From the sequence record NC_106514.1: DNA of 64,000 nucleotides. One strand, given 5' to 3'. Source of the stretch: Escherichia phage vB_EcoS_ESCO40. Shown piece by piece: positions 8,435 to 61,834 of this stretch. Every line of letters begins with the position of its first letter. The stretch's first letter is position 1. The translations under genes and the position numbers were made by a program. The notes below the pieces were generated by a model. That model had not been told where the DNA came from. It ran no database searches and worked only from the letters and a program-made list of their open reading frames with translations.

Positions 8435-8635
8435 ATGGCAATGACAGTAACACTTCCCAAGATTCAAGCAAAACTTAATCTACTTTCCACAGCACGTATT
8501 AATTATCAAGATAGCATAGGCACAGTAAATCAAAAAGCGTACAAAGATGCGTTTCTGAAAGAATCTGCTGATTTGATGGATATGGTTACACAATATAATA
8601 AAGAACTCAAGATGGAAATCGCCGATGATGAATAA
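8435..8635 (+). CDS. hypothetical protein
   Basis: ATG 8 nt after GAGAGGA; the track ORF from 8420 would start inside the conserved promoter leader. Confidence 0.45.
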   Translation: MAMTVTLPKIQAKLNLLSTARINYQDSIGTVNQKAYKDAFLKESADLMDMVTQYNKELKMEIADDE

Positions 8636-9599
8636 TGTAAAAGGCTTTATTAGGCGTTGTCAAGAAGCATATTATCAAGGCATGTCTTTAATCTCTGATG
8701 AGGAGTATGATTGCCTGGTAAAACGCTTCCCGTTAGAAGAAGAGATCGGGCCTAAAGGTGATATTCCACATCTGTATCGTATGTATTCTTTACAGAAAGT
8801 TTATTATAATCGTGGAGATAAACCCCCATTTAACCCCTTAGGTCAGGTAGAAACTGATAAGTTAGATGGTTGTGCAATTTCTCTGTTATATATTAACGGC
8901 GAATTTGTCCAAGCATTAACCCGTGGTAATGGTATTCTAGGGAATGATGTCACAAGCAACGTAAGATTGCTGAACATTCCTAAAAAGATTTCCCAAAAAG
9001 TACCTACTCAAATCACTGGTGAAGTTCTAATTACAAAAGAAGTAGAAAATAAACGTAACTTTGCCTCTGGTGCTATTAACCTCAAAGATAGTGATGATTT
9101 CGTACAACGCATTGGAGAAGGCGGTTTAATCTTTGTTGCTTACGGTATCCAATGTTCTGCTGAATCTGTAGGTATTACAGAAGCATACTTAAAAGATATG
9201 CTTTGGCTAGAGAATGAGAACTTCTTAACAGTTGTTAATGTGCGTTCCTTCTTTAAATGGATTCCGACGGACGGTAAAGTTGTTCGTATTAATGACAACA
9301 ACAAATTCTTCCGTGAAGGCTGGACTAATAAATTCCCTCGTGGAGCATTCGCTATTAAAGAGGATGAAGAAGGCGAAATTACAACTCTTACTAAAGTTGA
9401 ATGGCAGGTAGGGGCTTCTGGTAAAGTAACTCCAGTTGGTTATTTCGAACCGGTAATTATTGATGATGCTACAATTGTTAAGGCGACTCTTAATAACGTT
9501 GATTATATTAACTCTCTCGATCTAGAGATCGGTTGCCAGATTCGAGTGATTCGTGCTGGTGGTGTAATCCCGTGCATAGTAGAGCGAGTATACGATTAA
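8625..9599 (+). CDS. NAD-dependent DNA ligase, N-terminal fragment (Ia-like, adenylation and OB regions)
   Basis: KLDG adenylation motif (KxDG); SDEEYD Ia-like segment; ends where a Zn-finger would follow in an intact LigA. Confidence 0.8.
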   Translation: MMNNVKGFIRRCQEAYYQGMSLISDEEYDCLVKRFPLEEEIGPKGDIPHLYRMYSLQKVYYNRGDKPPFNPLGQVETDKLDGCAISLLYINGEFVQALTRGNGILGNDVTSNVRLLNIPKKISQKVPTQITGEVLITKEVENKRNFASGAINLKDSDDFVQRIGEGGLIFVAYGIQCSAESVGITEAYLKDMLWLENENFLTVVNVRSFFKWIPTDGKVVRINDNNKFFREGWTNKFPRGAFAIKEDEEGEITTLTKVEWQVGASGKVTPVGYFEPVIIDDATIVKATLNNVDYINSLDLEIGCQIRVIRAGGVIPCIVERVYD

Positions 9600-9771: not shown

Positions 9772-9801
9772 ATTTATATAAATTGATAAGGAAGAAATTT
9801 G

Positions 9802-10581
9802 ATGAAAATCGAAATTCCAACACAATGTCCCTCTTGTGGTTCTAAGCTAGATCTTGTCAACGGACAATTATTCTGTCGTAATAAGTCCAACTGTCCAGCG
9901 CAATCAAGTAAGTTAATTGAGAACTTCTGTACAAAAATGAAGTTAAAGGGCTTTGGCCCGAAAACTATTGAGAAGCTGGAGCTGACGAAGATTTCAGAAC
10001 TATTTTACCTAACCGAAGAAGATTTGGTTAGAGCCGTGGGTAGCAAGGTTGCCGCTAAGTTAATTAGCGAATTAAATACTAAAGTTCGCGGAGACATTGA
10101 CTTTGGTTCAGTTCTCGGTTCTTTAGGAATCCCTCTAATTGGAGAGGTTGCAGCAAAGAAATTGTCCCAAAATTGCACCAGTTTTCAAGATGTGAGAGCT
10201 GATGGCAAAGCTGGAGAAAATTATAAAGCCTGGCTAAATTCCCCACAAGGCAAGGATGTTATCGAATTACCGTGGAAATTCACAACTGGTATTAAAGGTG
10301 CTAAAGCTGGGGTCATCATTACTGATGGTCTAGTAGCCCAGCCAAATGGAATCACGGTGTGTATTACCGGGTCTTTGCAAGATTTTGCAAATAGAACGGA
10401 TGCAACAAATTATTTAGAAGGTCTAGGGTATACTGTTAAAAAATCAGTTACCAAAGACGTTAAATACCTAATCTGTGAGGATGAATCGAAGCGTTCTTCC
10501 TCATCTTATAAGAAAGCCGAAACGAATGGGATAGAAATCCTGTCGATTAAAGAACTATTGGAGAAAAATAATAATGTCTAA
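9802..10581 (+). CDS. NAD-dependent DNA ligase, C-terminal fragment (Zn finger, HhH, BRCT-like)
   Basis: CPSCGS...CRNKSNC zinc finger at N-terminus; ITGSL BRCT-like segment; TAAGGAAG RBS 8 nt upstream. Confidence 0.75.
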   Translation: MKIEIPTQCPSCGSKLDLVNGQLFCRNKSNCPAQSSKLIENFCTKMKLKGFGPKTIEKLELTKISELFYLTEEDLVRAVGSKVAAKLISELNTKVRGDIDFGSVLGSLGIPLIGEVAAKKLSQNCTSFQDVRADGKAGENYKAWLNSPQGKDVIELPWKFTTGIKGAKAGVIITDGLVAQPNGITVCITGSLQDFANRTDATNYLEGLGYTVKKSVTKDVKYLICEDESKRSSSSYKKAETNGIEILSIKELLEKNNNV

Positions 10582-18640: not shown

Positions 18641-18652
18641 ATGATGTATAAT
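18624..18652 (+). promoter_or_regulatory. T5-type early promoter (P7)
   Basis: TTGGCA-17 bp-TATAAT then ATATACATAAATTTGAGAGAGAAAG; overlaps the helicase gene end. Confidence 0.65.
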
Positions 18653-18723
18653 ATATACATAAATTTGAGAGAGAAAGTTTCGGATTGATAAGAAAGTCCG
18701 AAGCAGAAAAATAAAAATTTTAG

Positions 18724-18753
18724 TTGCTAAATTCTCTCGAAATCTAGTATAAT
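18724..18753 (+). promoter_or_regulatory. T5-type early promoter (P8)
   Basis: TTGCTA-18 bp-TATAAT then ATATACATAAATTCGAGGAGAAAAC. Confidence 0.7.
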
Positions 18754-18860
18754 ATATACATAAATTCGAGGAGAAAACAAAAATTAAATTCTTCGATTAT
18801 GAAAAGCTATACTTACTAGCTAGAGGAAATTCTGACCTAATTATTAAGCTATTCAAAAGA

Positions 18861-19145
18861 ATGCTTACAGAGCCTGATGCTCACCAATTATTGGTCGGTT
18901 CCTCATTTATTTTGAATGAATCAACAATAGTTGATAATCCAAATAAATTGTCTAATAGACAACTGGCAGAATATCTAGGAATTTTAAGTCTACGAAATTA
19001 TGCCGAATACAAGTTTACAAACGATCCTAGTTTGGACATACAATATGTTCCAGTATGGATACCACGTTTAGTAATCGACACTAACCCACTAATCGCAATT
19101 AACAAATCGAAATTAATCTTTAAAGAGGAAATAAAATATGGCTAA
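18861..19145 (+). CDS. hypothetical protein (94 aa)
   Basis: ORF with weak RBS; ends at the start of the next gene. Confidence 0.35.
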   Translation: MLTEPDAHQLLVGSSFILNESTIVDNPNKLSNRQLAEYLGILSLRNYAEYKFTNDPSLDIQYVPVWIPRLVIDTNPLIAINKSKLIFKEEIKYG

Positions 19146-19911
19146 GTCTTGGGGCGAAACTACTGGCGGTTCTAACGATAAAATCGAATTCCTGAAGTTC
19201 AACAACGGTATCACTCGTGTTCGTATCGTTTCTGGTGTTCTTCCACGTTATGTCTATTGGCTGACTAATAAAGAGGGTAGCGTAGCTCCTTTCGAATGTC
19301 TCCGTTTTAACCGCGACAAAGAGAGCTTTGTTCGTGGTAAAGCTGATCCGGTTCATGAGATGGGTTTCTTTGAGAAAGAGCTGGATAAAGATGGTAATCG
19401 CGTTCCGCTGAAACCGAAGAAAAACTATATCGCTTTTGTTATCGACCGTTCTGATAACAAACTGAAAGTAATGGAAGTCAAGGCTACTATTCTGAAAGGC
19501 ATCCAGTCTATCATGAAGCAGTTGAATCTGGCGACTCCGTTTGATATTGATATTTCTATTGAGAAGAAGGGTAAAGGTTTCGATACCGAGTATGATGTAC
19601 AGCAGATTGCTGCTATGCAGTTCCAAATTAAGCTGCAAGATCCTAACAGCGCAGAATCTAAGCAATATGCTGCGGATGTAGATCTGATCGGTGAAGCTAT
19701 GTGTGATGAAGATGGCGACATCATCAAGTTCGAAAAAGTTCCTTCTCTGGAACAAACATATCCGGTTCCTACCTATGAAGAGCAGAAAGAAGCAATTCAA
19801 GCCTTCATGGAAGGTCGTGAGAATAAAGATGATGATGCCAAATCTGGTAACAGCAATGCTGGTTCCCAGAAAGGTATTGACCAAGAAGCTGCAAGCGATC
19901 TGGACGACTAA
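19138..19911 (+). CDS. putative ssDNA-binding protein (abundant early protein)
   Basis: AAGAGGAAA RBS; host-preferred codons; acidic C-terminal tail EAASDLDD typical of SSB-type proteins; not confirmed by motif. Confidence 0.4.
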   Translation: MAKSWGETTGGSNDKIEFLKFNNGITRVRIVSGVLPRYVYWLTNKEGSVAPFECLRFNRDKESFVRGKADPVHEMGFFEKELDKDGNRVPLKPKKNYIAFVIDRSDNKLKVMEVKATILKGIQSIMKQLNLATPFDIDISIEKKGKGFDTEYDVQQIAAMQFQIKLQDPNSAESKQYAADVDLIGEAMCDEDGDIIKFEKVPSLEQTYPVPTYEEQKEAIQAFMEGRENKDDDAKSGNSNAGSQKGIDQEAASDLDD

Positions 19912-19918
19912 TAAATAG

Positions 19919-19942
19919 AGGGGCTTCGGCCCCTTTCTTTTT
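19919..19942 (+). terminator. intrinsic terminator
   Basis: GGGGC-TTCG-GCCCC hairpin followed by TTTCTTTTT. Confidence 0.75.
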
Positions 19943-19947
19943 AACTT

Positions 19948-20478
19948 ATGAGAAATAAGCTATATTCCTTATTTTTGGAAGACCCTAAAAAATTCATTTT
20001 ATTAGTAAATAAATTCAGAGAAAGATTTTCTTATGATCCTGAGTCCGGCCTACTCTCTAGGAAAGTAGGAACGGGTGGTCAGTTAGCAGGATCTATAGTA
20101 GGCACGGATAATGGAAAAGGGTATTTAAGAACCTCATTTAATAATGAGCAGTATCTTGTACATTTAATTATTTATGCCATGCAGACTAATGAAATGGCAG
20201 AAGTAGTAGACCACAAAGACTTAGATAAGAAGAATAATAGATGGAATAATCTAAGACCAACTAATAAATCAGGTAATGAAAGAAACACAAGCGTAAGATC
20301 TAATAGTACCACAGGTGTTAAAAACGTATATTGGATACCTGGGAGACATAAGTATAGGGTTCAGTTTAAAATCCACGGAGAAACAAAATACTTTGGATAT
20401 TATGATACTATTCAAGAAGCAGAAGTAGTAGCTGATAGGGAACGTAGGCGACTACACGGAGAATTTGCCAGATCATGA
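19948..20478 (+). CDS. HNH homing endonuclease with AP2-like DNA-binding domain
   Basis: VDHKDLDKKNNRWNNLR HNH motif; C-terminal GVKNVYW...YRVQFKIHGETKYFGYY AP2-like segment. Confidence 0.8.
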   Translation: MRNKLYSLFLEDPKKFILLVNKFRERFSYDPESGLLSRKVGTGGQLAGSIVGTDNGKGYLRTSFNNEQYLVHLIIYAMQTNEMAEVVDHKDLDKKNNRWNNLRPTNKSGNERNTSVRSNSTTGVKNVYWIPGRHKYRVQFKIHGETKYFGYYDTIQEAEVVADRERRRLHGEFARS

Positions 20479-21452
20479 AAATACTCTTTAGTGCTGATCA
20501 CCATATAAAACTTGGGCAAGATAAAATTCCCAAAGAATGGCAGAAGAAAAGATTCTTAATGCTGGGAGACCGTCTAAATGATATATTCCATAATCATAAC
20601 TGTGATTTGCATATTATTGGTGGTGATTTATTTGATCATTCCGACCCGTCGTCGGAAGAAGTAGAACTTCTAGAAAAATTTATGTCTAGGCTAGATCATA
20701 TAGGAATGGTATTTACAGGTAATCATGAATTAATAACTAAAACCATTTCGTGCCTATATCATTATGCGGGGGTTATTAACAAAGTAACTAGTGGGAAGTG
20801 GGAAGTAATTACCAAACCATATCGTTCCCCTGAATTTGATATTGTTCCGTATGATGAGATCCATAAATCTAAGTGGAAACCTCCTGTATCAAAACTATGT
20901 TTCACGCATGTTCGTGGTGAAATCCCTCCGCATGTAAAACCAGAAATTGATCTAACTAAGTACAACTGTTATGATACTGTAATTGCTGGCGATTTACATT
21001 CTTATACTAATAGCCAGACTATCGGATCTACTAGACTTCTCTACCCAGGCTCTCCATTAACTACATCGTTCCATAGAGAACGCACAAAAGGTACAAATGG
21101 TTGCTTTATCATTGATACCGACACATTAAAAGTAGAATGGATTGAACTAGGTGATTTACCACAACTGATTCGTAAAACAATCGGAGCAGGTGAAGAGATG
21201 GAACCTAGTGATTATGATCGTGTAGTCTACGAAGTTACTGGTGACGTTGTTCAATTAAAGTCTATTAAAGACTCTGATTTATTAGATAAGAAGATTAACC
21301 ATCGAGTTACTAAAGATGCTAAGTTAAATCTTGTTGATCTTGATATGTTGGGCGAACTTGAACTTTACTTCCGTGAAGTCGAGAAGCTATCTCAAGGCGA
21401 CATTGATAGAATCTTGGCTAGAGCTGCGAAATATGTCAAAGATTACAATTAA
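20475..21452 (+). CDS. SbcD/Mre11-like nuclease
   Basis: Calcineurin-like phosphoesterase motifs SADHHI, GGDLFDH, TGNHE. Confidence 0.8.
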   Translation: MKILFSADHHIKLGQDKIPKEWQKKRFLMLGDRLNDIFHNHNCDLHIIGGDLFDHSDPSSEEVELLEKFMSRLDHIGMVFTGNHELITKTISCLYHYAGVINKVTSGKWEVITKPYRSPEFDIVPYDEIHKSKWKPPVSKLCFTHVRGEIPPHVKPEIDLTKYNCYDTVIAGDLHSYTNSQTIGSTRLLYPGSPLTTSFHRERTKGTNGCFIIDTDTLKVEWIELGDLPQLIRKTIGAGEEMEPSDYDRVVYEVTGDVVQLKSIKDSDLLDKKINHRVTKDAKLNLVDLDMLGELELYFREVEKLSQGDIDRILARAAKYVKDYN

Positions 21453-23271
21453 GACACTAAAATTTAGTAACGTTATGTCTTACGGTAAGGACATCGTAAT
21501 TCATTTCGATAAGAATCCAGTTACTCAACTAATTGGTGGCAATGGGCTAGGGAAATCCACCATCGCTACGGTTATCGAGGAATTGTTTTATAACAAGAAC
21601 TCTCGAGGTATCAAGAAGGATGCTCTATTCTCCTGGGCTTCTCCGAAGAAAGAATACGATATGCACGCTTACTTTTCAAAAGATGATGATGAGTATGAGC
21701 TGCATAAAGTTGTCAAGTCAACTGCTAAAGTAACGTTGATTAAGAATGGGGAAGATATTAGTGGGCACACGGCAACCCAAACATACAAGATGATTGAAGA
21801 GATTATGGGTGGTGACTTTCAAACATTCACCAAACTGATTTATCAATCAGTGGGTTCTAATCTAGATTTTCTAAAAGCAACAGATGCAACACGTAAGGCT
21901 TTTCTTGTTAACTTGTTCAATCAGGAACAATACAAAGAAATGTCGGAAACTATTAAGGCCGACCGTAAAGAAATAGCAAATACCTTAAATAATTTGCAGG
22001 GCCAAATGGCTGTAATTACGAAAATCCTTAATGGAAAAAATAATCTAGGAACTTTGCAGGAACCTGTAGAGGTGCCGGAGTTTGATGAAGAGCCATTAGC
22101 GCAAGAACTTACTGAATCGAAAATTAAGGCGGCATTAGCCAAGTCTCAAGAGGCTAATATTACTAAGTTGCGTAATTTGGACAAAGCTGTACAAGTTGCC
22201 GAACAATCTTTCGAACCTTTCAAAAATTTGCCCGCGCCCACCGACCAAAATGAAGAGATCTCGAGTGTTACGCGTGACCTAACGATTGTGACCTCACGTG
22301 CGAGCGAAGTTAAGAAACGTTATCAGAAGTTCAAGCAAGAGGCTTCGAATACTGAATGCCCTACTTGCGGTACTCATCTAGATACAACTGCTGCTCAAAA
22401 AGCAATGGATATGGCTAGAGTAGAATATGATCCTCTGTTCAAAGAGAAGCAATCTCTTGAAGCTAAGCTAGAACAGTTGAAGAAAGAACAACTTGAGTAC
22501 GTTGCGTATACTAGAGCAAAAGATGCTCTTGATAAAGCGGTGGTAGCTAGAGACGAGTTCAAAAATTCAATGAGTGATGCTTCTTTTGAAGAACTCAATG
22601 TGCAAATCCTACAGGTGCAAATCCGACAATTAGAACAGGCAATCGCTGATGGACGTTCTAAGGTTGCAATTGCCAAAGAGCATAATGCAAATGTAGAATT
22701 AGCCAATGCAAAATATAAAGCAAAGTTAGAACAGATTGAGAAAGCAGAAGCAGAAATGACTGAGATTACTTCCAAACTGAATGGAGTAGCCGAAGCTGTA
22801 GCTGATCTTGATATTCTAATTGCTGCTTTGAAAAATCTGGTGGGGTATAAACTAGAGCATAGTGTGAAAGTATTTGAAGAACTAATTAATAAATACCTTT
22901 CCATTATGACTGGAGGTAAATTCGCACTTGGATTTGAACTGGATGAAACGAAGTTACAAGTAGTAATCTTCAATGATGGAAACCGTACCAGTATGGAGAA
23001 CTGCTCTACTGGTCAGCAAAGTCGAATTAATCTAGCAACCCTGTTAGCTATTCGGATGCTGTTAACATCTATTAGTAAAGTTAATATTAATCTTCTATTC
23101 CTTGATGAAGTAATTAGCTTTATTGATACGAAAGGACTTGATACTCTCGTTGAACTATTAAATGAGGAAGAAAGTCTAAATTCTATCATTGTTTCTCATG
23201 GGCATACGCATCCATTAGCTCATAAGATTACTGTCAAAAAAGATGCAGAAGGATTTTCCTACTTAGAATAA
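21433..23271 (+). CDS. SbcC/Rad50-like ATPase
   Basis: N-terminal Walker A GGNGLGKST, central coiled coil with CPTCG zinc hook, C-terminal LLFLDEVISFID Walker B/D-loop; start taken at ATG 21433 (MSKITIK). Confidence 0.8.
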   Translation: MSKITIKTLKFSNVMSYGKDIVIHFDKNPVTQLIGGNGLGKSTIATVIEELFYNKNSRGIKKDALFSWASPKKEYDMHAYFSKDDDEYELHKVVKSTAKVTLIKNGEDISGHTATQTYKMIEEIMGGDFQTFTKLIYQSVGSNLDFLKATDATRKAFLVNLFNQEQYKEMSETIKADRKEIANTLNNLQGQMAVITKILNGKNNLGTLQEPVEVPEFDEEPLAQELTESKIKAALAKSQEANITKLRNLDKAVQVAEQSFEPFKNLPAPTDQNEEISSVTRDLTIVTSRASEVKKRYQKFKQEASNTECPTCGTHLDTTAAQKAMDMARVEYDPLFKEKQSLEAKLEQLKKEQLEYVAYTRAKDALDKAVVARDEFKNSMSDASFEELNVQILQVQIRQLEQAIADGRSKVAIAKEHNANVELANAKYKAKLEQIEKAEAEMTEITSKLNGVAEAVADLDILIAALKNLVGYKLEHSVKVFEELINKYLSIMTGGKFALGFELDETKLQVVIFNDGNRTSMENCSTGQQSRINLATLLAIRMLLTSISKVNINLLFLDEVISFIDTKGLDTLVELLNEEESLNSIIVSHGHTHPLAHKITVKKDAEGFSYLE

Positions 23272-47432: not shown

Positions 47433-48646
47433 TCTTTATCTCCCTCGGTGGAACCTTGAGGTCTACCACCTTCTTGACCAGATACACCTGTTGCAGAACC
47501 AGCAACGTTAGCAGGAATACGAATCTTATCCATCTGCTCATCATCTAAAGGTTCAAGGTTCAGCTCTAAACGAGCTTCGTTACCAGTCATAATACCATTA
47601 TTAACCAATGAGGTTAAATGTTTAGCCTCAGCTTCTTTATCTGGGGTTAATGCAGCTACCTCCTTAGTATTAGGGGTAATCTTATAACCAAAAAAGAAAG
47701 TAAGAGAACTAGTCAGTTTGTTCAGCATAGGAATGATAGTCATATAATAGAACAATTCGATGTTTGGTCGAATATTCGCATTATTACCACCATCAAGCAG
47801 TACTTGCGGAACACCAAAGGCTAGACAGATAGATTTATTAAATCCTTCGATGTCTTCCTTAAAGTCTAGATCTTTAAAAGAGGATATTTGGGAGTACGGT
47901 TTAGCTTTCATACCACCATCTAGAATCAGGACAGAAGACTGACCCGTACTAGGATTATAATCGAGTTGTAATTCTTCTTGTTTACGCTCACGCAATTTCT
48001 TGTTCAGGATTTCATCCGTCTCAAGAATAAGACCAATCACGGTACCGTTATCGAGGAATTTCTCTTTAAAGTTAAGCATTTTAGAACGCTTCTCGAGAGA
48101 ATCAATAACAGTAGCAACACGAGATTGTCCAGAAATTTGAGAATTTGTGCCACACACGTAACTGTTATCCTTTATAAAGATAATCTCATCTACGCGATAG
48201 TCTATCTGATTATTAAATATAAATTTTTTGATAAACTTATTGGCATCTGCCTCGACCTGCATAAGAGCGGCCGGGACATGGTAAAGCGATGTGCCATCCC
48301 AATAGATGTATGCACAACCTTCAAAAAGTAGGTCAGTGACTACAAGTCTACGGAATGTGCTTATATCCATGAATGGATTAGGTCGTACATTTAAGAGAGT
48401 GTCTAGAGTCTTTGTCTTGATGCCATTGGCATACGTGACAATATTATATTTATCTCCGACAGTATAAGAACACTCCGCCGCACTATCTATAACCATATTG
48501 GCAGTTCGATTGAGAATCTCAATCTTGCTATAGGCTTGTCCAGTGGTAAAAGGCTTACGGTTAGTGCGATGACTAACTGGTTCCATGTCTCTTATAATAC
48601 GTTGACCCGGATTTAACTTTTCAGTAATCCAGCTTTTTAAACCCAT
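47429..48646 (-). CDS. portal protein
   Basis: 405 aa; position between terminase and protease; acidic Gly-rich C-terminus. Confidence 0.75.
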   Translation of the reverse strand: MGLKSWITEKLNPGQRIIRDMEPVSHRTNRKPFTTGQAYSKIEILNRTANMVIDSAAECSYTVGDKYNIVTYANGIKTKTLDTLLNVRPNPFMDISTFRRLVVTDLLFEGCAYIYWDGTSLYHVPAALMQVEADANKFIKKFIFNNQIDYRVDEIIFIKDNSYVCGTNSQISGQSRVATVIDSLEKRSKMLNFKEKFLDNGTVIGLILETDEILNKKLRERKQEELQLDYNPSTGQSSVLILDGGMKAKPYSQISSFKDLDFKEDIEGFNKSICLAFGVPQVLLDGGNNANIRPNIELFYYMTIIPMLNKLTSSLTFFFGYKITPNTKEVAALTPDKEAEAKHLTSLVNNGIMTGNEARLELNLEPLDDEQMDKIRIPANVAGSATGVSGQEGGRPQGSTEGDKE

Positions 48647-49083
48647 TATAAGAACCTTGCGAATCCTGATTTTATTTCAGTCTTGACTTGTGTCTTTTCT
48701 TGAGGATTCTGTAATTTGTCTTTCTGCTTTTGAACCCACACTTTTTGCTTATTAGCAGAAAATAAAGGAGGTTCTTTTGTGTAAACCTTATGTAATAGTT
48801 GGTGATGGTGTACACAAAGGGTAACAGTGTCTTCTACCAGCTCATGCCTATATCGATCATAGAATGCCGTCCTATTTGAAAGGACTGTTTCTTCGTCAGT
48901 GAAATCCAATTGGAGTTCTTTAGCAAATTTTTTAACTAGTAGAGACACCGTATGGTAATGATGAAGCTCTAATTCTTCAGCACAACCGCAGATAGCACAT
49001 TGAGAGTCTTTTTTATATTGACTTTTTATTCCGTCTCTCATAAGGGATATAGCATCGCGTTTATATTTTATATTGCTTGCCAT
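48646..49083 (-). CDS. HNH-type endonuclease-like zinc-finger protein
   Basis: CAICGC...HHYH...CVHHHQLLH Cys/His cluster; start taken at ATG preceded by GAGGAG (track ORF extends to 49170). Confidence 0.5.
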   Translation of the reverse strand: MASNIKYKRDAISLMRDGIKSQYKKDSQCAICGCAEELELHHYHTVSLLVKKFAKELQLDFTDEETVLSNRTAFYDRYRHELVEDTVTLCVHHHQLLHKVYTKEPPLFSANKQKVWVQKQKDKLQNPQEKTQVKTEIKSGFARFL

Positions 49084-49197
49084 AGTGTTCTCCTCAACTG
49101 TATGAATATAGTATACATAATCGTATCGAATTTGTAAAGGGGATTTTAAAATACAGGAATGGGATACCAACTGAGTAGTATCCCATCCTATACTTAT

Positions 49198-53527: not shown

Positions 53528-53718
53528 TGGAAGTAGTAGCTACACTAATAGTAATACTAGTCTGGGCAACTTTCATTGTTTCTTATAACGCGTATGTTCG
53601 CCTAAAAACTCTAGAGGCTCAAGTAAAACAGCAACAATTTGCTATAGAAAAATTAGTAGAACTCCAACGTTGTGATAGTACCCGTATTCTGCAAATTGAG
53701 AGGGAATTAGATGTTTAG
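53524..53718 (+). CDS. small membrane protein (64 aa)
   Basis: Start overlaps upstream stop (ATGA); hydrophobic helix VVATLIVILVWATFIV then charged coiled-coil-like tail. Confidence 0.5.
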   Translation: MMEVVATLIVILVWATFIVSYNAYVRLKTLEAQVKQQQFAIEKLVELQRCDSTRILQIERELDV

Positions 53719-53950
53719 TATTATAGTTGCTTTTATTATCGGGATAATCGCGGGAGTTTTCGGAATGACTGCGGCTATTAACAAGCATCGTAAGTATACT
53801 GCGGAAGTATCGCGGGAGATTGCGGAAAGAGAGCGAAAGTTTGACGAGAAACGTGCGGAGTTTGACGAGAAACGTGCGGAGTTTGAGCGGGAGTGGAATG
53901 ATGGTTCAAGAAGTTCTCGGAGGAGATTCAAGATAAATGGCAAATCATAA
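53711..53950 (+). CDS. small membrane protein (79 aa)
   Basis: Hydrophobic helix IIVAFIIGIIAGVFGMTAAI then charged tail with duplicated FDEKRAE. Confidence 0.5.
   Translation: MFSIIVAFIIGIIAGVFGMTAAINKHRKYTAEVSREIAERERKFDEKRAEFDEKRAEFEREWNDGSRSSRRRFKINGKS
53838..53879. repeat. 21-bp direct duplication inside the small membrane-protein gene
   Basis: GTTTGACGAGAAACGTGCGGA occurs twice in tandem. Confidence 0.8.
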
Positions 53951-54434: not shown

Positions 54435-54554
54435 TTAGCACTAAAATGACTTTTGCCAAATTTCATAAGATTACACATGGAGGTGTGCTCACTGCCTCCG
54501 GCGAAAATACTTAGTCTCCTAACCGCCACCCCCGTTACTATTACTCTGCTAACT

Positions 54555-54591
54555 GTTTCACCCTGCAACCATTTTAATTGCAAGGTGAAAC
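54555..54591. terminator. long hairpin between convergent genes
   Basis: 14-bp stem GTTTCACCCTGCAA/TTGCAAGGTGAAAC (one mismatch) with 9-nt loop; no clear U-tract. Confidence 0.35.
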
Positions 54592-54608
54592 AATTTCAAC
54601 TTTAATTG

Positions 54609-55343
54609 TTAGGCAACTTTTAATTTCTCGATGTACTGTTGCGGGCTGCAACTATATTCTGCGCGTTCTTCCTCGGTCATACTTTCCCAGCATAATTTTA
54701 AACGGTCGGCTAGAAATTGATAATCATTATCATCCTCAAGAGATTCATCAATAAAGGTTTCACCTATCAATGTGACACCGATTGATAGAATATCGTTAAT
54801 AGCTTGCGCGTCCAGCGTTTTAAATCCGTATGATGCCGCCGCTGATAGCACGCCTTTATGATCATCAATCATAGTAAAATCAGCGTTCGGATAAAGCTGT
54901 TTAAATAACTCAAAGTAATGGCTTTTATATATAGCGTCTTTACTGTGGTATATTTCGCTAACTTTATCAGCTTCAAAATATTTGTGCAGTGTATCGCGGG
55001 AAAATACGCGGATATTACTATCCCCACGCCCTCGCAGTCCTTGCTTGCGTAGGTAATAATAATCGGACTTGCTCATCAGTCGAGCGGTGCAGATAATGTT
55101 TAACGTGTTAACGTCATTCATACATTGGCGCATATATGTAACAAGCGGCAAGAGTGTATCTTGCATTATTAAATCGTGTTTACATGCTTCATTCTTGTAC
55201 TTATTTAGATCTAGATTGCCGTCGCTATCAAAGCAAGGCGCTACGCGATGGAATGAATTAACGATAGTGCCATCTAGATCCCAAATCATGACGCGGGAAA
55301 TATGCGGGAAATTACGGGTAATATTCGTTTTAACTTGATTCAT
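54609..55343 (-). CDS. dmp: HAD-family deoxyribonucleoside 5'-monophosphatase-like protein
   Basis: 244 aa; MIWDLDGTI HAD motif I; position next to A2-like and A1-like genes. Confidence 0.6.
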   Translation of the reverse strand: MNQVKTNITRNFPHISRVMIWDLDGTIVNSFHRVAPCFDSDGNLDLNKYKNEACKHDLIMQDTLLPLVTYMRQCMNDVNTLNIICTARLMSKSDYYYLRKQGLRGRGDSNIRVFSRDTLHKYFEADKVSEIYHSKDAIYKSHYFELFKQLYPNADFTMIDDHKGVLSAAASYGFKTLDAQAINDILSIGVTLIGETFIDESLEDDNDYQFLADRLKLCWESMTEEERAEYSCSPQQYIEKLKVA

Positions 55344-55417
55344 TTTGTTACGTTCTCCTTTTAAGGGATTAAATTAAATTAATCCAGCCCACTGGATGGG
55401 CTGGACTATTCCAGCTA

Positions 55418-55813
55418 TCAAAGACCATAAGCCAACGCATCGGCGATGACGGTAATATCCTCGCCCGATACATCGGAACGAATGCCCGCGCATGTAAATA
55501 CCTTCGCACTCATTAGCTGATCATCCAGACAAGCGGGGCAAGGCGCGACAACTGCGAAAGCTAAACCTGATTTTACGGCGTCGATGATAGTCGTTTCCTG
55601 CTTCACTGTGTCAATATAAACGCCTTTCGCCTTGATGCGGCTGGATAGTTTGCCCGTGGTATAGGCGAAAGTCGTGATCTGTAGCGCCTCGTTAAACTCG
55701 ATTAAATCATCGACAACGTGACCGGCCTCAACGTGATACCGCTCACCATTTGAATAAACTAGGACGATGGAAGAACGAGCGCGATCGAATGGAATACGGT
55801 TAGAAATAGCCAT
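55418..55813 (-). CDS. pre-early protein, A2-like
   Basis: 131 aa; assignment by size and position between dmp-like and A1-like genes. Confidence 0.4.
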   Translation of the reverse strand: MAISNRIPFDRARSSIVLVYSNGERYHVEAGHVVDDLIEFNEALQITTFAYTTGKLSSRIKAKGVYIDTVKQETTIIDAVKSGLAFAVVAPCPACLDDQLMSAKVFTCAGIRSDVSGEDITVIADALAYGL

Positions 55814-55885
55814 GTTTATAGCTCCAATTAATTTAATAAACTTTTATAGCGGCTATATTTCAAGCCGCCAACCTGATTTATTGGC

Positions 55886-57559
55886 TTACTGTACAAAAAA
55901 TTTGCCGTTCTTAAAGTCGATCAAAGTGCGCTGGCCGTTCGCATAGGTAATAACATGCGTTTGCGTCCAGCTCGACGCGCCAACGTTATAGCCCATGTCC
56001 AGACTACCAGATACGCCAGCGGTATAAACGCCGCCGTAAATGCTGGCGGTGTGAGTGTGCCCCGTGTTTAATTTGCCCAATTTCTTAAATTGCTTCGGAT
56101 TGCCACGGCTCCCGTTAATGCCATTGTGACCGTGTACACCGCACTCAATGCCTGCAATCTTGAAAGATTGATCAGTGGTCAGGAAAATAGCGTTAAATTC
56201 ACAACCTGCAACCTTGCGCAGCGCATAATCCAGCACGTTGAAAGTATCGTCTTTTTCTGCAATAGCTCCGTAAATCGCAGCATTAAGGCGGTGATATAGT
56301 TCCGCGTTGGCTGGATCGTCTTTAATGTTAGCATTACGATCATCAAGCCAACGGGATAACGCCAGATCATGGTTAGATTCAACAATGATCGTTTGAGCAA
56401 AATCGCGCTCCATTGATTCCAGTACGCGCCCGGTATCGATAAGGTCATCCAGAACTTTATCACGTCCGGCGGCGTATTGTTTTGCTAGGAATACACCAGA
56501 AGCGCGGTTGTGATGATTGCGCGATGTAAAATCATGCACGTCATGCACGAATTGATATTTTGGTTTAAGAATATCAACAAGCCCGTAGGTATCACCATGC
56601 CCCCACGACGCAGCGGCGCACTCCTCATCCAATTTTTCGGCGTGTATGTCGCCATATTGCAAGCCTAAAACATGATCGGACGTTTCAAAGCATCCGGCGG
56701 GAGTGGCGCAAATATTCAAATCGTAAAACATGCCGCTTTCGTCCATCGTTTCAAGCTGGCGAACAAAAAATTCACCGTCCTCGTCAAACTCAACAATCAG
56801 CGCACCAAAATTATGTAGCGCCTCGGCCTTTTGCCCTGCCTTTTGCTGAATGTAGTTTTTGAGCGTTGCCGTTCCGGTCGAGTACATACGGCGCACTACT
56901 TCACCTTTTAAAGCTGGGACGCTTTCGGCGGTGATTTTAGCCGCTCCAATTGCCAGACCTTCCAGATTAAGCGCGGTTGCAGTTTCAGCGAATCCAGAAA
57001 GCGGATAATCTGCAGTTGGTAACACGTTAATCTCAGCCATGAAAGCAAAACGGCGATTATTCAAAAACACGTTTTTATTGCAGATATATTTATCAAACGC
57101 AGAATCATATTTGATTCCGTCCGCGCCCTCACCATTTTGAAAACCGTTTTTATTATAAATATACTTGCTAACCAGCAAATCAGCGCCAATAAATTGGGCA
57201 TATTGTTCAAGCGAGGATAAAAAGTTTTTATGCGGGAAAGTATTATTCTGAATCGATGTAATAATAAAGCGTTTACCTTGTTTTACTTCCCAGCTTTCCA
57301 CCGTGCTAGAAATAACTCCAGCGGCTTCAGGGCGGTCATCGTTTTTAATAGCTTTTACAGTTTTTGCCGCTTTTGGTTTCGCTGGTTTATTTGCTTCCAG
57401 CCAATCACAAATAGCGGTGGAATGCTTTGGAGTATCGTAAACCATTTTAGAAATATCGTCACATACTTCCAATTTAGTGGCGCGCAGACGTTTACCATAG
57501 AAATTAAAGTCAGCGGCCATTTTCAGGATAACGGTTTGTTTTTCTGCGGAAATAATCAT
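55886..57559 (-). CDS. A1: pre-early protein A1-like (metallophosphoesterase-type)
   Basis: 557 aa; calcineurin-like motifs GDIHAE, GHGD, NHD, GHTH in the C-terminal half; position and size match T5 A1. Confidence 0.6.
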   Translation of the reverse strand: MIISAEKQTVILKMAADFNFYGKRLRATKLEVCDDISKMVYDTPKHSTAICDWLEANKPAKPKAAKTVKAIKNDDRPEAAGVISSTVESWEVKQGKRFIITSIQNNTFPHKNFLSSLEQYAQFIGADLLVSKYIYNKNGFQNGEGADGIKYDSAFDKYICNKNVFLNNRRFAFMAEINVLPTADYPLSGFAETATALNLEGLAIGAAKITAESVPALKGEVVRRMYSTGTATLKNYIQQKAGQKAEALHNFGALIVEFDEDGEFFVRQLETMDESGMFYDLNICATPAGCFETSDHVLGLQYGDIHAEKLDEECAAASWGHGDTYGLVDILKPKYQFVHDVHDFTSRNHHNRASGVFLAKQYAAGRDKVLDDLIDTGRVLESMERDFAQTIIVESNHDLALSRWLDDRNANIKDDPANAELYHRLNAAIYGAIAEKDDTFNVLDYALRKVAGCEFNAIFLTTDQSFKIAGIECGVHGHNGINGSRGNPKQFKKLGKLNTGHTHTASIYGGVYTAGVSGSLDMGYNVGASSWTQTHVITYANGQRTLIDFKNGKFFVQ

Positions 57560-57655
57560 AGTAATAAAACTCCATTAAAGGGATTAAAAACGTTTGTTAT
57601 TGGCAATATTGCCAGATATAACGCCGCAAATGAGTGGCGTTATAATTTGCAACAT

Positions 57656-57853
57656 TTAACTAATAGGCATTAGGCTGGCACTAACCCCACAAGCAACGGC
57701 GGCGATTAAGCAAAGTAAACCCAACCGCCTTGCTAAATTAGCCTTGCGTTTAAAATAATATGAATCCAGATCATTTTGAAAATAAGCAAACAATAATGAG
57801 GCGGCCATAATAAATAAGCCTAGAATGAGGGATTCAGTAGGGTAAAAGATCAT
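57656..57853 (-). CDS. small membrane protein (65 aa)
   Basis: Two hydrophobic segments (LILGLFIMAASLLFAYF and LGLLCLIAAVACGVSASLM). Confidence 0.5.
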   Translation of the reverse strand: MIFYPTESLILGLFIMAASLLFAYFQNDLDSYYFKRKANLARRLGLLCLIAAVACGVSASLMPIS

Positions 57854-57909
57854 TTTAAAACTCCAGTCAAAGGGAAATTATAGTGGGGAATAATCCCCAC
57901 TAATTAAAT

Positions 57910-58326
57910 TTATTCGCCAGCGGCTTGTTTTACTTCATCGGCAACGCCTAACAGTTGCGCCACGGCGTCCAGCGTTTCCAATTTTGCACTTTCCAGCGAG
58001 GCCAGATCATCGGCGTCTTTGATAATACCGGAATCGATCGCATGTTTTGCAATAACGCGCACATAATGCGCTTTACGAATGGAACTACCGCCGCCAACCT
58101 TGCGAGGTTTATCGCTTTTCTGATACGCTTTCGCGCTGGTCAATTTTGAGCGAACAGACACGGGAGAAGTCGCGCCAACTGTTTTAGCAATCTCTTTCAG
58201 GCCGTCGCTGTTGGCGAACTCTAATCCATTTTCATTGATTAGCTGTTGATACATAGTAACAGCCTGTTGGGTGTTTTCTTCATTCCATGCGAATTTTGCA
58301 GATTTTTCGGTTTTAACGTTAGCCAT
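57910..58326 (-). CDS. hypothetical protein (138 aa)
   Basis: ORF in the leftward pre-early operon; no motif recognised. Confidence 0.5.
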   Translation of the reverse strand: MANVKTEKSAKFAWNEENTQQAVTMYQQLINENGLEFANSDGLKEIAKTVGATSPVSVRSKLTSAKAYQKSDKPRKVGGGSSIRKAHYVRVIAKHAIDSGIIKDADDLASLESAKLETLDAVAQLLGVADEVKQAAGE

Positions 58327-58422
58327 GATTATAACTCCTATTGAATTAATTTAAGGGATAAGATTAACATAATGTTAATCGTTATATCCCCCGAACTACT
58401 GGGGGATATAAAAGTAACACTA

Positions 58423-58674
58423 TTACGCTACAGCTTCAAATTTTTCGTTCCGCTGGACAACCTTTACAACGTCGCCGGATTTAACCCGAACGTTATAAAT
58501 AGTTTTCCCGTTGTTACTCCGTTCCGTTTCAGCATATACCGCATCAATCACATCGAACGGCATAAGCGCCGCGCCTTTGATGCGTTCGGCCTTTCCAGTT
58601 GCCTCATCCGTTTTAGTAACGAAAGGAATAAAAACGGATTGACCAATTTTAGGCGCGGTAATAACGTTTTTCAT
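58423..58674 (-). CDS. hypothetical protein (83 aa)
   Basis: ORF in the leftward pre-early operon. Confidence 0.45.
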   Translation of the reverse strand: MKNVITAPKIGQSVFIPFVTKTDEATGKAERIKGAALMPFDVIDAVYAETERSNNGKTIYNVRVKSGDVVKVVQRNEKFEAVA

Positions 58675-58901
58675 AGTATAAACTCCTAGTTATTTGGGGA
58701 TTGTTCCGCATTACCTGCTAGAAAGTAGCAGGTAATAAGAAAAAATCCGCTCGCCAATATAATCAATTTAAAGAACTCCACTCAGGCCGCTATATCCCAG
58801 TTAGGGGGCGGGACACATTATGGTAAGTGCCGACCGTCAAATTGTATCAAGTTATCGCTCTTATCGAACTGGGTACATCTTAAAGCCTATCGGCTAGGGT
58901 G

Positions 58902-59105
58902 TCAAACAATTTTTTGCAGTTTTTTATGATTTTCTTTCAGGTCAATCATAATATTTCGCCAGATCATTTCCAGACCTTGCTGGCGGCCTTTCTTGTACTG
59001 CGTGAATCTATATCTTACGGATTGTTGAGCTATTGTCAACAATTTTTTAGTATTGCCATCCAATTTTTTGGCTGGTTTACCAGTTATCAAAAGCGTTTGT
59101 TTCAT
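58902..59105 (-). CDS. hypothetical basic protein (67 aa)
   Basis: Lys/Arg-rich ORF; AAGGA RBS 9 nt upstream on the minus strand. Confidence 0.45.
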   Translation of the reverse strand: MKQTLLITGKPAKKLDGNTKKLLTIAQQSVRYRFTQYKKGRQQGLEMIWRNIMIDLKENHKKLQKIV

Positions 59106-59725
59106 ATCTGCGATTCCTTATATAATTGATAAGTTTACCGCCGATAGACTTTAAGATATACCCAATTTTTAAAGAGCGCGGCGGTAAACTTCCCGCCGTT
59201 GTAGTCCGTTGCCGTCCTACGAGATAAATAATAGCAAATACCAAAAATGGCGCAACCTTATTTTTGTAAAGAAACGTAAAGAAAGCAACACGTCCGGCGT
59301 TCACCTAAGTTTAAAGGAAACGGGCGCGCGAATACCACAAAACACAGCAGATAGGCAAGTAATTTTTTCATTTATATTTGCCTTGCCCTACTTGACAAAA
59401 CTTAAAAAGCTCAAGGCGACGATAAACGGCTTATCCCTTTATGATGGCATACCTGAAAATTTTACCGCTTTCTAGGACGTTTTAGGCGGCTTATTTTCGA
59501 CTTAACAAATATTTAACAAAAGCAAAATTGAAAAATAGTTTGAAAAGATATTGACTTTTTAAAATCAAGATTAAACGAGTTATTTTATAAAATTAATTAA
59601 TTGACTTTTATTTGACGTTGTGTATTAGAAAGATAGCAGACTAATAATTGCTAGGATGATAATCATGCTGGTGGATTGTAACAGCCTGAACTATTAGCAG
59701 ACTATTAATCACGGAAAATCTCATT

Positions 59726-59754
59726 AGCCAACTAACTATTTCCTGAGTTATAAT
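59726..59754 (+). promoter_or_regulatory. promoter-like element with T5-type downstream leader (P10)
   Basis: TATAAT followed by ATAAGCATAAATTAATGAGAT matching the conserved leader of the early promoters; weak -35 (AGCCAA). Confidence 0.45.
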
Positions 59755-59805
59755 ATAAGCATAAATTAATGAGATAATAATAATTATAAGAAATCGTAAC
59801 CAATA

Positions 59806-59897
59806 GAAATAATAACTATAAAAATAATAACTATAAAAATAATAACTATAAAAATAATAACTATAAAAATAATAACTATAAAAATAATAACTATAAG
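59806..59897. repeat. 15-bp tandem repeat, about 6 copies
   Basis: AATAACTATAAAAAT repeated head to tail. Confidence 0.9.
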
Positions 59898-59934
59898 AAA
59901 CTATCGGCCTAAGTGAGAACCACTATCATTTAAG

Positions 59935-59943
59935 TTATCCACA
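59935..59943 (+). promoter_or_regulatory. DnaA box (perfect 9-mer)
   Basis: TTATCCACA. Confidence 0.5.
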
Positions 59944-59994
59944 AGTTTATTAACAGCACTTTTTGACTTGACACGATAGGCGGCGATATAAGGG

Positions 59995-60044
59995 CTTATC
60001 CACAGACTTATCCACAGGTTATCCTACTGTATAAATATACAGGG
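59995..60044 (+). promoter_or_regulatory. composite element A: two tandem DnaA boxes plus a LexA-box-like palindrome
   Basis: TTATCCACA at 59996-60004 and 60008-60016, then TACTGTATAAATATACAGGG (CTGT-N8-ACAG) at 60025-60044. Confidence 0.55.
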
Positions 60045-60308
60045 TAGAAAGGTAGTGTTAACAACTGCAATCAATTTTAAGCGGCCTAAATCGCTTTCTA
60101 ACGAGCTAAATGCAGTGGGGTAATATTAAAGTAAAGCCTTCACCCGCCGCCCTGGTGGCTTCGCCGTGTTTTGCTCTTTACTATACCGCTGCGCGGTTAG
60201 CATAAAACTAGGCGTTAGGCAAGGAAAATAAAAAGGTAAAATAATATTTGCCCCTAGAAAGAAAATACCCTTATCATTCACTCACCGATTAACGAGGGAG
60301 TCCAACAA

Positions 60309-61286
60309 ATGAGGCTGTATAAACCAGATAATGCCACCGTCTTAAAAGGTGCGCTGCGCAACCTGCTGGACGGTAGCAGAACAACCAGCATTAAGCACTT
60401 TGTTAACAAGGCCGAAGATATTCACCAAAATTTTTTTGATGATTTCGATGCCTATGATATGAGTAGTTTTTTGCAATTGTATAAGCAAGGGGCAACGCTT
60501 GTTTTGTATAATCGAGATAATCACCTGCTTACTAGTAGGGGGCCGGATACTGATTTTATAATTGTAAAAGGTAGCACAGTAAAAGCCTATGACACTGGGG
60601 CGGGCTTAGAAGTTTTTTCAATAGAAAACTATGAAGCCAACCCCAATGATCTTTATGACGTTGAAAACTTTCTTGATTCATTTTGGCGTTATTTATCAGT
60701 TGGCTGGAATCGGTCAATTGGTGACGGTTATCGTCTGGCGGCTGTAATGGCTTTTGATGATGATGGCAATTTTTTGCTACCGTCGGAAATATACCCTTAC
60801 GTATATGATGGGGATATAGAAAGCGCGGGCTTTTCTTTCTGGAAGGAGGAAGATCAGCCTATTGACAATATAGAAAAACATGCGGTAAATTCTAACGCTC
60901 AAACCATTGAAAACAAAGGAAAAAATACCATGACCAAGATCGCTAATATCGTTGCCGCTAATAAGTCTGCCGTTGTAAATGCTGCAAAATTGGAAGCGGG
61001 TAAAATTGCACTGACTCAAATCACGAAAGTAGCGGCTAAAAAAGCGCCGTTTATGATTAAAGGCTATATTGATACGCCTATCGGTCGGGTAGTGATTGCT
61101 AACCTGCTTAGCGTGGTGGTTGACCAGTATGCCCCTAGCAACCAGAAAGCGAAAGCGGTAGCGGGTGCAGCTATGGAAGCGGCTATGTTAGAAATGGTGC
61201 AAAGTTTTAACATTGCTGAAATGATTGACGAAATGGTGAAAGGTATTGATATTTCTACTTTTACCGTTAACACCGAAAACGAGTAA
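60309..61286 (+). CDS. hypothetical protein (325 aa)
   Basis: GAGGGAG RBS 9 nt upstream; no motif recognised; first gene of the rightward cassette. Confidence 0.6.
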   Translation: MRLYKPDNATVLKGALRNLLDGSRTTSIKHFVNKAEDIHQNFFDDFDAYDMSSFLQLYKQGATLVLYNRDNHLLTSRGPDTDFIIVKGSTVKAYDTGAGLEVFSIENYEANPNDLYDVENFLDSFWRYLSVGWNRSIGDGYRLAAVMAFDDDGNFLLPSEIYPYVYDGDIESAGFSFWKEEDQPIDNIEKHAVNSNAQTIENKGKNTMTKIANIVAANKSAVVNAAKLEAGKIALTQITKVAAKKAPFMIKGYIDTPIGRVVIANLLSVVVDQYAPSNQKAKAVAGAAMEAAMLEMVQSFNIAEMIDEMVKGIDISTFTVNTENE

Positions 61287-61832: not shown

Positions 61833-61834
61833 AA

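Follow-up and report, generated by a model that had tools for sequence, protein, structure and literature searches.

The 64,000-nucleotide stretch of DNA from Escherichia phage vB_EcoS_ESCO40 analyzed here (hereafter the window) carries a gene, HEG1, that is probably a free-standing homing gene, either active now or active until recently. On this reading, to which sequence comparisons lead us to assign a probability of roughly 0.6, the encoded enzyme would cut or nick the first ~260 nt of the adjoining gene D12 in relatives that lack HEG1, the gene would spread through co-conversion repair of the break, and the carrier itself would be immune. A second gene of the same family, HEG2, is also present in the window. 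The two genes are located as follows.

19948-20478, plus strand: HEG1, free-standing HNH-AP2 homing endonuclease gene, 176 aa

53937-54434, plus strand: HEG2, second free-standing HNH-AP2 homing endonuclease gene, 165 aa

The original prediction had placed HNH-AP2 homing endonucleases at these two loci, and both open reading frames (ORFs) were recovered there, each encoding the motif DHKD...NNRWNNLR. Their HNH identity was corroborated by Pfam HNH_3 (PF13392), whose gathering score of 24.8 bits was exceeded by HEG1 (29.2 bits) and HEG2 (50.4 bits, E 1.7e-13), and by matches to phrog_99 'HNH endonuclease' (E 1e-55 for HEG1 and E 9e-57 for HEG2). In an alignment of 55 family sequences, D88, H89, and N113 are invariant, and N97, N101, and N110 are conserved in at least 90%. 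The HEG1 motif can be aligned with DHKD...N...N of I-HmuI, an enzyme with a helix-turn-helix as its C-terminal DNA-binding region, and the catalytic role of each residue in HEG1 is assumed to follow that of its counterpart in I-HmuI. A single-sequence phmmer search of the PDB returned only a marginal match to I-HmuI (E 0.34), and a profile built from the 55 family sequences was required. Positions 53-110 of this profile match I-HmuI (E 5e-8), and the nuclease domain has the beta-beta-alpha metal-finger fold of HNH / His-Me finger endonucleases. Positions 109-165 match plant AP2/ERF proteins, namely WRI1 (7WQ5, E 1.3e-11), TEM1 (7ET4, E 2.3e-7), ERF096 (E 1.3e-5), and AtERF1 (1GCC, E 1.7e-4), and show the AP2 arrangement of a three-stranded antiparallel sheet packed on one helix. 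The AP2-like segment that had likewise been proposed stays below the threshold of Pfam AP2 (PF00847) in single sequences: the C-terminal 63 aa of HEG1 score 16.8 vs 33.3 bits (E 0.0085, spanning model positions 2-53 of 54), and HEG2 gives no match. Many homologs carry precomputed PF00847 matches, including proteins 73-74% identical to HEG2 in which both Pfam AP2 and HNH_3 are matched. The combined HNH and AP2 architecture was confirmed by the profile and structure comparisons.

Proteins with HNH and AP2 domains are a recognized family of homing endonucleases (Magnani, Sjolander & Hake 2004, Plant Cell, PMC520932, as cited in PMC10448857), with an N-terminal HNH and a C-terminal AP2 domain, ~160-180 aa in length and free-standing in phages. 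HEG1 has the same organization, and no structural difference from this family was observed. In contrast, I-HmuI (Bacillus phage SPO1, PDB 1U3E) is an intron-encoded HNH nicking enzyme with only ~20% identity to HEG1, which is free-standing and has an AP2-type C-terminus. The family comprises 64,846 cluster representatives at E <= 1e-3. No further members were retrieved from the window by a regular expression or by phmmer with both proteins against all ORFs of at least 50 aa, and NCBIfam gave no match for HEG1, HEG2, or the third HNH-like protein described below. The Rfam scan of the whole window returned no match and thus gave no indication of an intron in the split ligase, at the HEG1 locus (site 1), or at the HEG2 locus (site 2). 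HEG1 and HEG2 are homologous over their full length (33% identity, E 7e-29). Their relatives outside T5-like phages are closer (36-44% identity for HEG1 and 54-59% for HEG2) than the two are to each other, which points to separate acquisitions and not to duplication. Thus, of the proposal that HEG2 is a paralog of HEG1, membership in one family holds and origin by duplication does not.

Site 1 consists of HEG1 and two flanking genes, D11 (SSB, phrog_1607) and D12 (SbcD-like nuclease, phrog_100, Metallophos), together with a terminator.

19917-19945, plus strand: intrinsic terminator downstream of D11 (SSB), from the terminator scan and RNA folding

20475-21452, plus strand: D12, SbcD-like recombination nuclease

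The terminator has an 8-bp GC stem, a UUCG loop, and a U-tract (-15.9 kcal/mol, z -2.7), a terminator is annotated in the equivalent position of T5, and the HEG1 ORF begins 3 nt past it. This agrees with the claim that the gene sits right after a strong terminator between SSB-like and SbcD-like genes. In empty genomes (T5, SelmaRatti, and mar004NP2) the terminator is followed by ...TTTTTAACTTATGAGAATATTATTTAGTGCTGATCAT, the ATG of which is the start of D12. At the occupied site HEG1 begins at that same ATG with the sequence ATGAGAAATAAG..., and D12 restarts 527 nt downstream at ...GATCATGAAAATACTCTTTAGT, where its start codon overlaps the HEG1 stop in a common ATGA. The inserted cassette is therefore 527 nt long (19955-20481 in one of several equivalent registers) and is bordered by a 7-nt near-repeat, with ATGAGAA as its left copy and ATGAAAA as its right copy. 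The promoter scan revealed no consensus promoter for the cassette itself, and no clear Shine-Dalgarno sequence was seen ahead of HEG1. As read from these junctions, the cassette takes over the translation start of D12: the promoter-less insert uses the original D12 start codon together with the region upstream of it, and D12 is re-initiated through the ATGA stop/start overlap.

Next, we compared this region among T5-like phages. The phage studied here is itself T5-like and belongs to the Demerecviridae. The region 18800-21600 matched 449 phage records, the best being HildyBeyeler at 98%. HEG1 DNA was present in 27 of these ~449 records sharing the flanks, at an identity of at least 93.6% and always in the slot between D11 and D12, which corresponds to an occupancy of ~6% in counts that include GenBank/RefSeq duplicates and fragmentary contigs. 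The site is empty in T5, SelmaRatti, mar004NP2, and most other records. Presence/absence polymorphism at the junctions had been set beforehand as the test of mobility, and carriage of the same genes at the same sites by all relatives as its refutation. T5 is empty at both sites, and polymorphism at one fixed position in collinear genomes, as found for homing genes, was observed at site 1 and also at site 2 (43 of 366 records, see below).

Comparison with the Epseptimavirus phages rutana and smaug and with Shivani, which extends over two genera, revealed a marked difference between the gene and its surroundings. D10 and D11 of these phages are 85-89% identical to the window, HEG1 is 97.3-99.4% identical, the first ~275 nt of D12 are 98.9-99.3% identical, and in the rest of D12 identity drops back to about 90-97%. 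The gene is thus more conserved than its flanks, and its distribution is incongruent with the genome phylogeny, as expected of horizontal spread. In all eight carriers examined the HEG1 ORF is intact, with 20 synonymous vs 8 nonsynonymous variants, and it is under purifying selection.

The segment of D12 that accompanies the gene forms a distinct allele, hereafter the W tract.

20475-20735, plus strand: W tract, the HEG1-linked divergent allele covering the first ~260 nt of D12

Between the window and T5 there are 53 differences in D12 nt 5-259 and 7 in nt 260-420, and those of the W tract change the amino acid at 15 of 87 codons. Over D12 nt 1-~270, every carrier reaches 98.9-100% identity, even those with D11 at 85-89%. 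In T5 and the majority of empty genomes, identity to the window is 95-98% in D10, D11, and distal D12, and ~80% in the first 276 nt of D12. As a database-wide measure of the tract we used identity to the window over D12 nt 36-266, which gave the following classes.

Identity of at least 95%: 28 records, consisting of the 27 carriers (all at least 96%) and SelmaRatti

Identity of 80-95%: 59 records, partial mosaics

Identity of 60-80%: 403 records, the T5-type allele and Klebsiella phages

SelmaRatti was the sole gene-less record with the full tract in the database. The assumption that the 80-90% class consists entirely of empty mosaics was rejected, as Stp1 and TrudiGerster carry a different endonuclease gene.

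The limits of the module common to carriers differ between genomic backgrounds. On the left it begins ~3 nt from the insert in smaug, 18 nt in H8, 93 nt in rutana, and 190-228 nt in Shivani/SHSML-45, and on the right the boundaries vary between backgrounds beyond D12 nt ~270. These differing boundaries define at least five flank contexts around a tract that is obligatory on one side only. Co-conversion of flanking sequence with HEG1 is thereby observed, and together with the mosaic alleles described below it supports the earlier suggestion that these endonucleases mark recombination hot spots.

The empty alleles of D12 in Tequintavirus and Epseptimavirus are one allele in common (94.4% identical), and the carrier allele is ~80% identical to either, which indicates either an origin outside these lineages or exceptionally rapid divergence. 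An origin in the Klebsiella-phage lineage was rejected, since at 62% identity the W tract is no closer to it than the T5-type allele is. We presume, on the basis of these comparisons, that the W tract is an immunity allele. It can occur without HEG1, as seen in two genomes: SelmaRatti is a mosaic with an empty-type junction and nt 1-33 and carrier-type nt 39-259, and in PHZ191 the site is empty yet the start of D12 is carrier-type. The latter state is what would be expected as the remnant of a deletion between the flanking ATGA(G/A)AA repeats. Absolute linkage of D12 nt +5, +27, and +33 to HEG1, also considered, is broken by PHZ191.

The same slot holds other endonuclease genes. In Klebsiella Sugarlandviruses an ortholog of 176 aa was found in 11 of 80 records, with the same 527-nt insert and the same ATGA overlap. 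Between occupied and empty Sugarlandvirus genomes, D11 and the intergenic region show 98-100% identity. The value falls to 69-78% in D12 nt 1-300 and recovers to 91% in nt 301-600 and 98-99% in nt 601-990, and occupied genomes are 98-100% identical to each other in the nt 1-300 tract. HEG1 shares 59% amino-acid identity with the database homolog P0003, presumably the Klebsiella gene in question. The slot between D11 and D12 is also used by HEG-X, a different HNH lineage, whose start codon occupies the same position and which has the same ATGA overlap. HEG-X is 171 aa long in Stp1, which has it wrongly labeled as 'prohead protease', and truncated at a poly-A run in TrudiGerster. HEG-X and HEG1 share 36% identity in the HNH part only and have different C-termini. 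The D12 allele linked to HEG-X is carrier-type to about nt 180.

These patterns are consistent with the following sequence of events. The HEG1 product has an I-HmuI-like HNH (His-Me finger) nuclease domain followed by a C-terminal AP2-type DNA-binding domain. During co-infection with a gene-less relative, the enzyme would nick or cut the D12 gene of the relative within its first ~260 nt, and the break would be repaired by recombination from the endonuclease-carrying genome. Repair would copy HEG1 along with the D12 segment between the break and the insertion point, and the carrier would be protected by its own D12 5' end, which is ~20% divergent. Short left tracts combined with an always long right tract lead us to expect a break inside D12, and our best guess for its position is the stretch coding for the GGDLFD motif.

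20616-20654, plus strand: D12 nt 142-180, candidate region for recognition or cleavage, with the codons of phosphoesterase motif II IIGGDLFDHSDPS

This region was delimited by typing ten intermediate or mosaic genomes (SelmaRatti, mar004NP2, Gostya9, Tennessee, PHZ191, SP3, DT571/2, L017, Stp1, and TrudiGerster). Of these, mar004NP2 and Gostya9 are T5-type at D12 nt 5-42 and 73-135 and carrier-type at nt 142-259. The sole carrier-type patch common to all ten, which share ancestry and so are not independent samples, is D12 nt 142-166 (window 20616-20640). It encodes IIGGDLFDHS vs IAGGDILDVA in T5, within phosphoesterase motif II. Nucleotides 142-180 also lie within the W-type part that the HEG1-linked and HEG-X-linked alleles of D12 have in common. 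The corresponding allele sequences are GATGTTGCCGACCCGTCGTC for the T5 type and GATCATTCCGACCCGTCGTC for the carrier type. On the strength of the shared patch we tentatively place the break at nt 142-180, at somewhat less than even odds. Selection on D12 protein function could yield the same patch, and the W tract could be the relic of a single ancestral cross-lineage recombination, kept since because 20% divergence suppresses crossovers.

A break elsewhere would lead to a different interpretation of the tract. If the enzyme, like intron-encoded homing endonucleases, cut at or within ~25 bp of the insertion point, across the terminator/D12-start junction, the insertion itself would destroy the site and the D12 tract would be historical baggage. 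Such a position would explain why the empty-site sequence TTTTTAACTTATGAGAATATTATTTAGTGCTGATCAT, which the insert splits, is highly conserved among empty genomes, why D12 nt +5, +27, and +33 separated 8/8 carriers from 27/27 empty genomes in our first sample, and why both endonuclease lineages and the Klebsiella ortholog are found at exactly the same insertion point. However, in PHZ191 the site is empty and D12 nevertheless begins with carrier-type sequence, and the left tract may span no more than 3-18 nt whereas the right tract measures at least 260 nt in every carrier, an asymmetry that fits a break inside D12. Characterized free-standing phage endonucleases, moreover, cut away from their own gene (PMC2988022). 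We therefore regard a cut at the junction as unlikely.

Another reading takes HEG1 as a passive or domesticated passenger that has ceased to drive its own spread, whose patchiness arose from ordinary homologous recombination between T5-like phages in co-infected cells and whose protein is inactive or reused, for instance in competition with other phages in the cell, DNA processing, or AP2-mediated DNA binding and regulation of the D12-D13 operon. Undirected recombination could hardly have placed 97-99% identical copies in 11-15% divergent backgrounds at a constant site with a one-sided tract, nor is such a passenger easily reconciled with conserved catalytic residues, an ORF under purifying selection, and the repetition of the pattern in another genus (the Klebsiella Sugarlandviruses). 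It would, on the other hand, accommodate the low occupancy of about 6%, the apparent precise losses in PHZ191 and SelmaRatti, and the truncated copy of the other lineage in the TrudiGerster slot, and nine HNH enzymes with no clear part in infection have been reported for T5 (bioRxiv 10.64898/2026.04.02.716235). Weighing these points, we consider a passenger origin improbable. That the ORFs arose by chance or were mis-called is hardly credible, for despite the missing obvious Shine-Dalgarno sequence of HEG1, the family matches reach E 1e-55 or better, extend to the tens of thousands of cluster representatives counted above, and are accompanied by a confident two-domain fold and an ORF that is intact in all carriers.

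Returning to the interpretation of HEG1 as a homing gene that targets D12, a broader extension can be formulated. HEG1, HEG-X, and the Klebsiella ortholog may all target the motif II codons (D12 nt ~142-180), in which case the slot would be a contested landing pad and the resistant D12 patch would circulate alone as an 'antidote' among endonuclease-free phages. We consider this possible but doubtful. If true, an arms race with neighboring selfish genes would be the main cause of allele variation in D12, a core recombination enzyme of T5-like phages.

The proposed mode of spread resembles that of free-standing endonucleases of phage T4, whose genes form promoter-less cassettes. These enzymes cleave at sites hundreds of bp away from the gene that encodes them, and markers on the flanks are co-converted (PMC2988022). 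Like HEG1, the cassettes of T4 MobE (HNH) and SegG/SegF (GIY-YIG), known for 'intronless homing', lie between essential genes and are transcribed with their neighbors, mobE being located behind a terminator (PMC2988022, PMC2790892). The seg and mob enzymes cut at a distance in a neighboring conserved gene, with flanking markers co-converted and excluded (PMC2988022, PMC2790892). The occupation of one slot by HEG1 or HEG-X is paralleled in T4 by the replacement of SegH/Hef vs mobC/mobE, as far as this is cited in PMC2988022. HEG1 differs from the T4 enzymes in phage family, in its DNA-binding domain, and in the takeover of the D12 start codon with an ATGA restart, and cleavage by HEG1 is a prediction from the sequence patterns.

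HEG1 and HEG2 are already known in kind and in annotation. HEG1 DNA is 98-99% identical to annotated GenBank genes in HildyBeyeler (bas33_0031, 'putative homing endonuclease') and Shivani (CPT_Shivani118, 'HNH homing endonuclease, contains HNH and AP2/ERF domains'), and an identical gene is annotated as a homing endonuclease in rutana and others. The literature searched contained no biochemical characterization of T5-like HNH-AP2 copies. HNH genes scattered in T5-like genomes have been described as the main source of differences in gene content, according to the BF23 paper (PMC10644984), and nuclease genes mark boundaries of genetic exchange (PMC10448857). In T5 there are no genes at sites 1 and 2, and the window is devoid of the T5 hegJ upstream of the primase gene. 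As a discovery the present case carries little weight, since the genes were already annotated and their role in T5-like gene content already stated. The novelty is descriptive only and comprises the exact cassette, the one-sided tract, the replicate genus, the second lineage, and the target prediction. Nevertheless, it provides a clean and replicated natural example, with an exact 527-nt cassette, a ~260-nt one-sided tract, and a second lineage in the slot. A set of alleles is available among the BASEL phages and T5: Bas33 HildyBeyeler (carrier), Bas34 SelmaRatti (empty, with a carrier-type tract), Bas27 TrudiGerster (other lineage), and T5 (empty). The mosaic structure of D12 is also a warning for D12/SbcD-based phylogenies and recombination analyses in Demerecviridae.

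Site 2 was analyzed in the same manner. Here HEG2 lies in the final segment of unique sequence, ahead of the right terminal repeat.

53711-53950, plus strand: T5.162-like membrane-protein gene (phrog_6447)

54486-64000, no strand: right terminal repeat (pre-early dmp, A1, and others), its start assigned from the homologous repeat boundaries annotated in T5 and BF23

HEG2 is preceded by an llp/Cor gene and by four genes for small membrane proteins. The sequence at which the BF23 repeat starts, TGCTCACTGCCTCC, is located at window position 54486, 51 nt past the HEG2 stop, and this arrangement places the gene between the llp/small-membrane-gene region and the pre-early block as had been described. 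Alignments and translations against BF23, DT57C, MET_P1_179_112, APCEc03, and SelmaRatti revealed that the last ~48 nt of the membrane gene are replaced upon HEG2 insertion, the protein end ...REFRPEHRFDDPSMR (then stop) becoming ...KINGKS (then stop). The HEG2 start overlaps the new membrane-gene stop by 14 nt and is preceded by a GGAGGAG Shine-Dalgarno sequence. T5, BF23, and DT57C are without HEG2, and in these genomes the T5.162-like gene is followed by about 42 nt and then the repeat. Among the 366 records matching the flanks, 43 carry HEG2 at 71-98% identity, with phiAPCEc03 (92.6%) as the best match over site 2. Both phiAPCEc03 and SelmaRatti are carriers of HEG2. A different, hegJ-like HNH gene is inserted after an intact membrane gene in MET_P1_179_112, and of 23 IMG/VR genomes three carry an ortholog at site 2, ~6 a different HNH gene (33-41% amino-acid identity), and the rest none. 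These comparisons indicate that site 2 is a shared endonuclease slot too, and that HEG2 is an independently acquired member of the family, presumably spreading as HEG1 does.

A third HNH-like gene had been reported beside the terminase and grouped with the mobile endonucleases.

48646-49083, minus strand: T5-type nicking endonuclease, the third HNH-like gene, between the portal and large terminase genes

The ORF extends from 48646 to 49170 on the minus strand, and the ATG at 49083 is probably the real start. Its position was upheld, as portal and TerL were identified on either side, and its classification as a mobile endonuclease was not. The protein matches the 'Nicking endonuclease' of PDB 9QGV/9QGX (E 1.8e-79, residues 28-174), an enzyme of the T5 type that it resembles over its full length and in its position between portal and large terminase, and to which HEG1 and HEG2 are unrelated. 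It has no Pfam match and a weak PHROG HNH match, phmmer found no match between it and HEG1 or HEG2 at E <= 10, and our literature search found no paper on the 9QGV nickase structure. The gene was matched in 591 T5-like records from Escherichia, Salmonella, Klebsiella, Vibrio, and Proteus phages, which points to a conserved core gene, neither polymorphic nor mobile and separate from the HNH-AP2 pair. Several of these matches are annotated as 'nicking site-specific endonuclease'.

The junction between D11 (SSB) and D12 (SbcD-like), in which the first HNH-AP2 homing endonuclease gene of the window is inserted, is also held, at exactly the same point, by a second and distinct lineage of HNH endonucleases in phages Stp1 and TrudiGerster.

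KY775453 65141-65656: second-lineage HNH gene of Stp1, in the D11|D12 slot
MZ501108 31135-31554: second-lineage HNH gene of TrudiGerster, in the D11|D12 slot

The Stp1 record labels its gene "putative prohead protease", an apparent misannotation, and the TrudiGerster gene is truncated at a run of 13 A, with a 100-nt gap left before D12. The same 527-nt endonuclease insert as in the window occurs in 11 of 80 Klebsiella phage records (Sugarlandviruses), linked to a tract of D12 (nt 1-300) that is 22-31% divergent. The annotated D12 start of phage Sugarland is placed 156 nt too far downstream (76059 vs about 75903). In Salmonella phage PHZ191 (PV394073 ~31120) the junction is empty, yet the start of D12 (TTTTTAACCAATGAAAATACTC) is of the carrier type, i.e., the divergent 5' allele linked to carriers of the first endonuclease, and most of this tract is present despite the empty slot. 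This junction looks as if the endonuclease gene had been lost precisely, between the ATGA(G/A)AA repeats that flank it.

At the start of the first endonuclease gene, a weak 5-bp hairpin (CUUAU-GAGAA-AUAAG; 19945-19959, + strand) pairs the AUG with codons 3-4 of the same gene, and is absent from the D12 starts at empty sites. The hairpin may dampen translation of the endonuclease, but is too weak to serve as evidence.

Two further endonuclease slots known from relatives are unoccupied in the window. The first, at 12893 (primase start), corresponds to the position of T5 hegJ directly 5' of the primase gene, and the second is a 220-nt intergenic region (18641-18860) between D10 and the T5.125 homolog, a position at which rutana carries an HNH gene and Shivani a partial copy of one. 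Separately, the NAD-dependent DNA ligase is split over two ORFs (N-terminal, 8625-9599, +; C-terminal, 9799-10581, +) separated by a 200-nt spacer with promoter-like hexamers; no Rfam family, introns included, was matched in the entire window.

Another endonuclease-like gene lies beside the terminase.

48646-49083, - strand: nicking-endonuclease-like gene, flanked by the genes for the portal protein and the large terminase subunit

Conserved across 591 records of T5-like phages, this gene closely matches the solved "Nicking endonuclease" structures 9QGV/9QGX (E 1.8e-79). The TTG at 49170 chosen by the ORF finder is probably the wrong start; translation from the ATG at 49083 yields 145 aa, in agreement with the crystallized chain of these structures.

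On the 5' side of the second HNH-AP2 endonuclease gene, a small membrane-protein gene contains a perfect 21-nt tandem duplication of 2.3 copies (AGTTTGACGAGAAACGTGCGG; 53838-53886, +) that lengthens the protein by seven residues (KRAEFDE). The repeat is one copy shorter in relatives, and another 21 nt are deleted nearby in SelmaRatti. The right terminal repeat begins at 54486, as placed by homology to the boundaries annotated in T5 and BF23; therefore, the final ~9.5 kb of the window are repeat DNA with pre-early genes (dmp, A1, and others).
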